From contig CAZPFW010000002.1 in assembly GCA_964586065.1 (NCBI GenBank), forward strand, positions 1 through 53,727: a stretch of DNA of 53,727 nt, written 5' to 3'. This document shows, piece after piece, positions 136 through 990 of this stretch. This DNA is from an uncultured Candidatus Saccharibacteria bacterium (GTDB taxonomy: Bacteria; Patescibacteriota; Minisyncoccia; Minisyncoccales; CSSED10-335). Made by a program: the position numbers and the translations under genes. Under the pieces are notes generated by a model. That model had not been told where the DNA came from and did not search any database. It saw only the letters and a program-made list of their open reading frames with translations. Position 1 is the stretch's first letter. Each line of letters opens with the position of its first letter.

Positions 136-990
136 TTAGTCTATCTTTTCAGATAGATATTTGTCTTTTGTTTGAGCGTAGAGGGTTTGTACTTCATAGG
201 CTGTTAGGGCTCTCGAATAGATGCGGACGTCGTCGATGAGGCCGTTGAAGAAATAGCTTCCCGTACTGTAAGTTCCTATCATGGCTTCCGCTGCTCCAAA
301 CCCGTCAAAAGTACTCTTAACGCTCTTCATGTCTCCTCCGTTAATATAACTTCTGTAGGTTTCTCCATCATAACTTCCGACAAAATGATACCATCTGTCC
401 GTTTCAATATCTGTATGAATCAGATAAGCTTGAGATCCTCCTGATTTTGCATACATTAATTTAGCTTGACTAAGATCGCCTACAAGAAGAGATGCTCCTG
501 TATTGGCGCTGGGAGATCCAGTAGCCTTGTGAAAAGTGATTATTCTATTTGGATAAACACTATCGTCTATCTGACTCGCATTAAACCAACCCGAAAGAGT
601 CCAAACATTATCTGAAAGAATAGAGTTTGACGGACCAAGTCTGATATAATGGTTTCCTTTACTCACATCCATCGCCTTACCCCCAGTCCCAGGAACACCA
701 TCCACTCTAGTAGCTCCAACGATAGTTCCGTTGTTCCCATAACCCGAGAGGTCGTTAGCTACACTTCCCGACCCTTCATCAAAGTTCCACCAACCTACTA
801 AGTCAGCTCCCAAGAGATTGTGCATGTTTGATTGAAAGGAGAGAGCGTTGGATATCTTGGCTTGTTCTCTGGCTCCTGTCAGATTGGAGAAGACTATGCT
901 GGCTAAAAGGGCTAAGACTGCTACTACAACTAAAAGCTCTATTAGTGTGAAGGCAGATTGTTTTCTTGAATCATTAAATAGATTAATCAT
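136..990 (-). CDS. Type IV pilin-like N-terminus + LamG (concanavalin A-like) domain protein, copy 1
   Basis: SA|FTLIELLVVVAV prepilin-type helix; LamG motifs GWWNFDE and FNGLIDDVRIYSRALT. Confidence 0.9.
   Translation of the reverse strand: MINLFNDSRKQSAFTLIELLVVVAVLALLASIVFSNLTGAREQAKISNALSFQSNMHNLLGADLVGWWNFDEGSGSVANDLSGYGNNGTIVGATRVDGVPGTGGKAMDVSKGNHYIRLGPSNSILSDNVWTLSGWFNASQIDDSVYPNRIITFHKATGSPSANTGASLLVGDLSQAKLMYAKSGGSQAYLIHTDIETDRWYHFVGSYDGETYRSYINGGDMKSVKSTFDGFGAAEAMIGTYSTGSYFFNGLIDDVRIYSRALTAYEVQTLYAQTKDKYLSEKID
161..249. repeat. 3' constant block of the pilin-LamG family
   Basis: 89 bp identical to 21261-21349; 87-bp match at 18829-18915 to the same junction; overlapping matches in the 19.6 kb and 20.4 kb junctions. 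Confidence 0.95.
777..963. repeat. 5' constant block of the pilin-LamG family (leader type A)
   Basis: 187 bp with 2 mismatches versus 21910-22096. Confidence 0.95.

Follow-up and report, generated by a model that had tools for sequence, protein, structure and literature searches.

The genome of a Minisyncoccales bacterium (Patescibacteria) encodes at least nine prepilins headed by a LamG domain, and the most probable account of their relationships, one in which we have considerable confidence, is that recombination between paralogs starting from constant blocks has homogenised the gene ends, staggered the junctions, left old cores in place and led to the gain and loss of genes, with the junction of copy 1 (c1) being native. 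Seven prepilin genes with a LamG domain (c1 to c7) are found in the window, i.e. the entire 53,727-nt stretch of DNA analysed here, all of them co-oriented on the minus strand; an earlier count of six had missed c7. An eighth family gene (c0) is the tandem neighbour of c1, 117 nt downstream of it; it begins at base 18 of the window and was read from the contig of origin (ENA ERZ3460579 NODE_9, 589,514 bp). The samples that contain this genome (runs X1-X20) come from digesters, landfills or bioreactors. All nine copies are full-length open reading frames with a start codon and a signal peptide, and the number of truncated silent cassettes is zero. The closest named relatives carry the annotation Minisyncoccales bacterium (MAGs). 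The family displays a mosaic structure, concerted evolution, strain differences that cluster and match neighbouring genes, and copy-number polymorphism.

Class III signal peptides combine a short charged leader with a small residue at position -1, F or M at +1, E at +5 and about 20 hydrophobic residues, and c1 shows this pattern, with RKQSA ending at -1 and FTLIELLVVVAVLALLASIV following. The Pfam N_methyl profile scores 32.8 bits and Laminin_G_3 81.3 bits against c1; across all seven window copies the former ranges from 25 to 33 bits, exceeding its cut-off of 21.2 bits, and the latter scores 51-85 bits in all copies, while TIGR02532 likewise scores above its cut-off. An AlphaFold2 (AF2) model of c1 (pLDDT 86.5) contains a helix at residues 16-60, β-sandwich strands at 64-258 and a C-terminal helix at 264-276, so that a long α-1 helix carries a globular head; the sandwich starts 3 residues past α-1, and a separate globular pilin module and linker are absent from the model. 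Foldseek searches with the sandwich retrieved the lectin-like domains of the clostridial neurotoxin Hc, trans-sialidase and arabinanase domain 4, all with probability 1.0, and, among PDB sequences, the N-termini of pilins (PilA, GspG, geopilin) give matches that are weak yet in keeping with this architecture. On these models, the c1 family comprises type IV pilin-like proteins with a predicted LamG/ConA-like lectin head. None of the scanned window proteins belongs to the pilus machinery.

A codon alignment splits each gene into six parts, namely a leader, a 5' constant block (~170 nt), a junction (~135 nt), a core (~400 nt), a 3' constant block (~80 nt) and a short tail (Table 1). Within the array of c5, c4, c3 and c2 the gene-gene joins are themselves exact repeats of 201-219 nt.

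Table 1. Positions of the LamG-headed prepilin genes, the parts of copy 1 and the repeats at gene joins
Feature	Position in the window	Strand	Description
c0	1-18, rest off the window (L001 10973-11860)	-	295 aa; eighth family gene
c1 (copy 1)	136-990	-	284 aa; class III signal peptide, predicted α-1 helix and LamG/ConA-like β-sandwich
c1 leader	952-990	-	MINLFNDSRKQSA; 'type A', on genes after a non-family gene (c1, c5, c6)
c1 5' constant block	781-951	-	FTLIELL...GWWNF; predicted α-1 helix and first strand
c1 junction	646-780	-	DEGSGSVANDLSGYGNNGTIVGATRVDGVPGTGGKAMDVSKGNHY; holds the 16-nt and 37-nt matches; motif type also EGSGSVANDLSG
c1 variable lectin core	247-645	-	97% DNA identity to the sister strain
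c1 3' constant block	166-246	-	NGLIDDVRIYSRALTAYEVQTLYAQTK; predicted last strand and C-terminal helix
c1 tail	136-165	-	Sister strain has the c3/c4/c5 tail instead
c2	18803-19609	-	Junction apparently half c1-type (EGTGSVA), half c4-type (KDSSGYGNDG); absent from strain L031
c3	19606-20421	-	Local constant block only to TGARE, then resembles the block of other species
c4	20418-21242	-	Type II junction (DDDTGNIAKDSSGYGNDG), also on the sister-strain copy-1 and copy-5 alleles
c5	21239-22123	-	Head of the four-gene array; type A leader
c6	23978-24868	-	Constant block common only over the first ~146 alignment columns; 3' end divergent
c7	52868-53671	-	Adjoins SecA; 5' constant block 99% to c2/c4, 3' block 63%
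c5/c4 join, exact repeat	within 21118-21343	-	3' constant block, tail, type B leader and 5' constant block
c4/c3 join, exact repeat	within 20315-20522	-	
c3/c2 join, exact repeat	within 19485-19703	-	

Comparison of these parts within and between genomes reveals that the two ends and the middle of the genes have different histories. The core of c1 is only 35-42% identical to those of its own paralogs vs 64-66% to its cross-species orthologs, whereas its 5' constant block is 95-99% identical to its own paralogs vs 71-75% to the orthologs, and its 3' constant block 100% vs 65-73%; these orthologs (P0003, P0005 and P0006) are the genes with the most similar cores, encoded on three contigs of another, large metagenome with different neighbours, and their orthology rests on core similarity. 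Among c1, c2, c4, c5 and c7 the 5' block has 0-8 differing positions, as against cores of 35-44% identity, a level close to random when the alignment is guided by protein. Further, the 3' block is 94-100% identical in c0-c5, and c1 and c0 are identical over 96 nt (window 155-250). The synonymous sites are identical as well in the homogenised copies, which differ at 0-4 synonymous codons of the constant blocks, as against 8-12 in c3, c6 and c7, which keep the amino acids; hence, amino-acid constraint does not explain the identity. The two ends are also incongruent: c7 is an in-group member at the 5' block (99%) but falls outside the group at the 3' block (63%), the opposite of c3. The cross-species arrays have a common constant block of their own (…GGAREGARISNALSFQSQTHSLLGSDLVGWWNFNE), and it is this type that c3 resembles past TGARE. 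Given that the copy-1 core has orthologs at 64-66% in other species, the cores represent old lineages rather than products of recent fast divergence. In DNA metagenomes the constant blocks (142-282 and 753-940) are seen at 25-40x the k-mer depth of the unique core, pointing to many more copies in the genome, in co-resident relatives, or in both.

Formal tests for recombination agree with this picture. The PHI test, applied in our own implementation to the codon alignment, is significant both for all copies (p<=0.0005) and for the five close copies over columns 61-360 (p=0.0035), and thus contradicts a single tree combined with amino-acid constraint. In a permutation of switches at informative sites, the triplet c1, c2 and c4 shows 24 switches vs 46.6 expected (p<=1e-5), so far below expectation that its blockiness is not attributable to chance; the corresponding values are 8 vs 26.3 for c1, c0 and c4 and 10 vs 23.7 for c1, L4_c1 and c4 (p<=1e-5 for each). 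An all-triplet, 3SEQ-like test was rejected as evidence on copy 1, as it is saturated: the contrast of constant ends and variable core renders almost every triplet 'recombinant'. The initial annotation had proposed that staggered breakpoints point to segmental gene conversion; for the family this is borne out by the concerted ends, the PHI test and the neighbour-matching strain patches described below, and as a reading of these sequences segmental gene conversion is strongly supported.

The individual matches on which that proposal was founded also hold. Positions 755-770 of c1 equal 19392-19407 of c2 exactly (16 nt), 695-731 of c1 match 20965-21001 of c4 with 1 mismatch in 37, and 20998-21023 of c4 equal 21861-21886 of c5 exactly (26 nt). 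Likewise, c3 leaves the constant block early, after TGARE (codon-alignment column ~128), and c1 has the leader type of c5 and c6, with a common 'QSAFTL' leader end and 68/68 nt of the first constant segment vs only 65/68 nt for c1 against c2-c4; the first 9-10 residues of the leaders of c1, c5 and c6 differ. Exact matches of at least 14 nt between variable parts are at homologous offsets, within ~140 nt after WWNF, with none in the cores. Taken alone, the 37-nt tract is marginally unusual within the junction (Fisher p=0.03, synonymous codons); it falls within a stretch common to c1, c0, c4, L4_b and sister-strain alleles, which fits either direction of transfer.

The further proposal that c1 is a patchwork which received pieces of c2 and c4 is not supported by comparison with other copies and species. 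The c1 junction is one coherent block, 94% identical at the DNA level to that of c0 and only 79% to its sister-strain ortholog, and the 5' sequence common to c1 and c0 extends over 287 nt at 94%, the whole junction included. The motif EGSGSVA(N/R)DLSGYGNNG accompanies the copy-1-type core in all three of the cross-species orthologs, the paralogs of which carry other junctions. Moreover, the c1 junction is 65-69% identical to those of the orthologs, about the same as its core (64-66%), as against 47-62% for the junctions of c2, c4, c5 and c7. Being coherent with c0 and following the copy-1 core in the orthologs, the c1 junction is most simply taken as native, and c1 itself looks like a donor or the native state. 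The junction of c2 looks like a hybrid of the c1 and c4 types, and c0 is a mosaic of a type B leader and constant block like that of c4, the c1 junction, a 33-nt exact c4 stretch and its own core. By their sequences, the alleles that appear clearly converted are c0, c2, the copy-1 allele of a sister strain (L004) and a sister-strain copy-5 allele. A scan of GTDB species genomes with copy 1 recovered only distant LamG proteins (best 39% identity), which have no polarising value.

Comparisons of sister strains show the same patches at finer scale. Positions that differ between strains are clustered in ~45-nt patches, which agree with the physically neighbouring paralog at 49/50 bases. Over 8.1 kb the identity of L004 to the window is 98.5%, yet a single 45-nt window of its copy 1 (736-775 region) contains 17 differences against a background of 4.8%, with 12 more in the last 22 nt, where its tail equals that of c3/c4/c5. 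The junction patch of this allele differs at 1/50 positions from its own downstream neighbour vs 17/50 from c1. A similar cluster, 12 differences within 45 nt at the corresponding place, occurs in copy 5 of both L031 and L033, and there the patch departs from the neighbouring copy 4 at 1/50 positions; the allele concerned (P0040) was assembled in at least 4 independent samples. In the window, the corresponding patch of c0 is 2/50 from c1. Two unrelated assemblies (L004 and L005) combine the copy-1 core with the type II junction. As the strain-level patches show, recombination is an ongoing process.

Larger exchanges are apparent as well. In both P0019 (c0 core, 97%) and P0013 (c4 core, 98.5%) the constant block is c3-type in its second half and the junction c2-type, so that P0019, a strain variant of the c0 core, differs in its junction from c0. 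L4_c and c7 have 270 nt in common at 99.3% and then continue into different cores; the cores of L4_b and L4_c are absent from the window, indicating strain-specific array content. In L031 the genes c5, c4 and c3 are followed directly by RarA, c2 is absent and c3 bears the tail of c2; this one-gene difference is a deletion or insertion with its breakpoint in the 3' constant block, via crossover. Outside the family, divergence from L004 over 250-8265 is uneven, being ~4% over 250-2250 and mostly <0.5% further upstream, which suggests between-strain recombination outside the pilin genes too.

In light of these observations, we propose that homologous recombination between paralogs would begin in the two constant blocks (5' ~170 nt; 3' ~80-96 nt), mostly as non-reciprocal gene conversion between physically adjacent genes, along with unequal crossover. 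Conversion tracts would reach variable distances into the ~135-nt junction and stop before the lectin core, as the core is probably too diverged to pair. This would leave the ends evolving in concert, the breakpoints in the junction staggered and the cores old and not alignable with one another, and whole genes would be gained or lost. The c1 junction would be native to its core lineage and copied into the neighbouring c0, the transfer probably having run from c1 to c0, and the short c2/c4 identities would be fragments of junction alleles in circulation within the family rather than imports into c1. The agent may be RecA-type homologous recombination, and selection may favour ends that are uniform, and so would fit a single pilus machinery and filament core, along with ligand-binding cores that are diverse.

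An account with no recombination, in which the pattern arose along one duplication tree, with the ends under strong purifying selection and the cores diverging fast, strikes us as exceedingly improbable. The ends do encode constrained parts (the α-1 helix and the first and last sandwich strands), and motifs such as G.IVGAT.V.GVPGTGG are conserved as protein in other species; yet such constraint would leave synonymous sites free to vary, as they do in c3, c6, c7 and the orthologs, which keep the amino acids with many synonymous changes, whereas the homogenised copies agree at these sites too. The swap of in-group and out-group status by c3 and c7 between the ends, the age of the cores implied by the 64-66% orthologs, and the significant recombination tests likewise contradict this model. 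Another very unlikely explanation is that collapsed repeats or chimeric paths through the identical 150-220-nt blocks created both mosaics and identity during assembly. All sequences come from short-read metagenome assemblies, and some contigs could link a leader to the wrong junction across the ~150 nt of identical sequence between the two. At the c5/c4 join and again at the c3/c2 join (window 21298-21336 and 19649-19703; L029 5897-5906 and 7595-7604), the 3' constant block of the source scaffold is interrupted by a 10-N gap whose flanking ends overlap, and these joins in the window are therefore merged overlaps; nevertheless, c5-c4-c3 is spanned by an independent JGI contig at 99.8%. Likewise, 17 of the 20 contigs with the upstream PfkB were not seen to pass through c1 (3 were), the seven short ones shown all ending 26-58 codons into c1, inside the constant block, and contigs with an identical upstream PfkB yielded no new copy-1 alleles, most of them ending in that block. 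Logan unitigs (k=31) also break in the common blocks and do not phase the link of junction and core in L004; still, other runs do contain unitigs of the window type across 622-751. Also speaking against an artefact, three assemblies, each of a different sample, give an identical c1-c0, the copy-5 allele P0040 was recovered from at least 4 samples, the copy-1 core joined to the type II junction recurs in the unrelated L004 and L005, and the distance from the junction patches to unique core is only ~80 nt, within one read. In the JGI contig L032 (5335-5917), which can be cited in favour of an artefact, copy 5 is joined to a copy 4 cut down to 169 aa, beyond which lie unrelated genes on the opposite strand; this would be either a chimeric assembly or a rearrangement.

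The remaining rival casts copy 1 as a privileged, highly expressed recipient that is overwritten by array segments, as Neisseria pilE is from pilS. The block pattern of c1 relative to c2 and c4 would be in line with it, as would the sister-strain copy-1 locus, which received a c4-type patch and a c3/4/5-type tail, and one metatranscriptome in which low-depth contigs cover the copy-1 core but not the c2-c5 cores. We nevertheless consider it improbable. None of the nine full-length copies is a truncated silent cassette, the coherent c1 junction matches both c0 and the distant copy-1-type orthologs, contig depth in RNA runs says little about the level of expression, and a search for a G-quadruplex (G4) motif (G3+N1-7 x4) found none on either strand anywhere in the window. 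Further, copy 5 and c0 show conversion to an equal extent, taking patches as the copy-1 locus does in the sister strain, and there is hence no sign of a privileged recipient. Recombination among the paralogs from their constant blocks thus remains the reading that we prefer. Two other sources of variation were considered and rejected: hypermutation of the cores by a DGR-like system, given that the 64-66% orthologs of the copy-1 core and the 49-59% protein identity of several other cores to their relatives indicate old lineages, and a shufflon or invertase, which is ruled out by the co-orientation of all copies.

These genes invite comparison with pilE/pilS, where one expression site is served by silent, promoterless, 5'-truncated cassettes, with a G4 element near the expression site, short variable mini-cassettes and one-way, high-frequency transfer to the expressed gene. 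In both cases the genes belong to the type IV pilin family, conserved segments flank variable ones and transfer is non-reciprocal and generates mosaics. Unlike in Neisseria, the present family has no single expression site and no promoterless 5'-truncated cassettes, its variable part is a whole lectin domain rather than mini-cassettes, and the transfers seen here alter the junction and not the ligand-binding core. In Patescibacteria host attachment depends on pili. An interchangeable, homogenised stem combined with many old lectin cores would allow a 0.6-Mb genome to keep diverse adhesins compatible with one machinery. We also raise, as a tentative idea that is more doubtful than likely, that the identical blocks serve an ultrasmall, episymbiotic bacterium as handles for recombination in an adaptive system that varies its adhesins. 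If so, lectin cores would be gained, lost and re-paired with stems, both within arrays and between co-resident strains, and the ligand repertoire of the pilus tip, possibly even host range, would shift quickly, with every cassette expressible, unlike in pilE/pilS. The strain-specific array content, the occurrence of the same stem on different cores (c7/L4_c; P0013/P0019) and the 25-40x depth of the blocks are consistent with this idea.

The mechanism itself, interlocus gene conversion and unequal crossover, is known, and it is the setting, an understudied lineage, that is new. Concerted evolution of tandem paralogs by these processes has been surveyed in prokaryotes (PMC6053082), and the present family resembles such cases in that paralogs exceed orthologs in similarity in the converted segments, phylogenies are mosaic, patches match donors and repeats mediate changes in copy number. 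It differs in that conversion is confined to both gene ends, leaving an old, unalignable middle, and in that the gene-gene joins are themselves exact 201-219-nt repeats. With respect to the protein, a modular type IV pilin with a ConA-like lectin module is known in Streptococcus sanguinis PilC (PMC9934059, PMC8179133), and lectin-like minor pilins have been implicated in host binding by Saccharibacteria, as candidate host-recognition factors (PMC11623550). The likeness to both lies in the class III signal peptide and α-1 helix followed by a predicted ConA-like/LamG sandwich, and in that the bacterium here is also pilus-dependent and probably host-attached. Unlike in PilC, the predicted sandwich directly follows α-1, with no separate globular pilin module, and, in contrast to both, there are at least nine paralogs per genome with homogenised ends and putative glycan binding. 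In the full-text literature, as incompletely covered here, we found no paper joining gene conversion, pilins and the candidate phyla radiation. On a practical note, exact repeats of 150-220 nt break or mis-join short-read assemblies, and gene counts and linkages of such families in MAGs are consequently unreliable.

The minus-strand gene order runs from c6 through genes for a DUF5671 protein, a 438-aa protein, c5, c4, c3, c2 and RarA/MgsA to those for FtsZ, an NTP-transferase, NAD(P)HX dehydratase, an SDR, a thioredoxin-reductase-like protein, enolase and iPGM; then follow genes for a 233-aa protein, glutaredoxin, GAPDH, acetyl-CoA synthetase, DHH, a response regulator, PEP synthase and PfkB, and finally c1, c0, ferredoxin and L25. 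The placement of c1 at the end of an ftsZ/glycolysis operon by the initial annotation is thus roughly right as to gene order, except that c1 is not last, c0 being next. The start of c1 is 2 nt past the PfkB stop, and a scan for promoters and terminators around copy 1 found nothing above shuffled controls. In one metatranscriptome (X25) contigs of depth ~3 lie on the c1 core, with none on the c2-c5 cores and almost none on PfkB or PEP synthase, and in another (X28) one contig lies on the c1 3' end and the c1-c0 spacer. Two further RNA runs, X26 and X27, were set aside as expression data, being DNA-like with flat depth over all genes, and even X25 and X28 are only weakly informative. These few low-depth contigs are a weak indication that c1 is transcribed; the additional suggestion that it is highly expressed, in the sense of sole or highest expression, finds no support in them.

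The RarA/MgsA gene, coding for a recombination-associated AAA+ ATPase (17658-18791), lies 11 nt downstream of the last array gene both here and in L031. The 438-aa protein between c6 and c5 (22145-23461) is membrane-anchored and has a weak FGE-sulfatase-like match; in L033 (8660-9979) it is split into three ORFs of 232, 99 and 50 aa, and is possibly a pseudogene there. Comparison with L031 and L033 identifies 28893-31018 as a variable restriction-modification island, which in the window encodes a 428-aa N6_N4 methylase with an SNase domain, in L031 other methylases and in L033 a MjaI-type endonuclease. Finally, 38862-44481 is syntenic with L027 100-8450, with genes for a 440-aa protein, a TrwB-like coupling protein, PGK, DHH and a small protein; a LamG-pilin array follows this block in L027 and none does in the window, which indicates that such arrays are situated at different places in different species.
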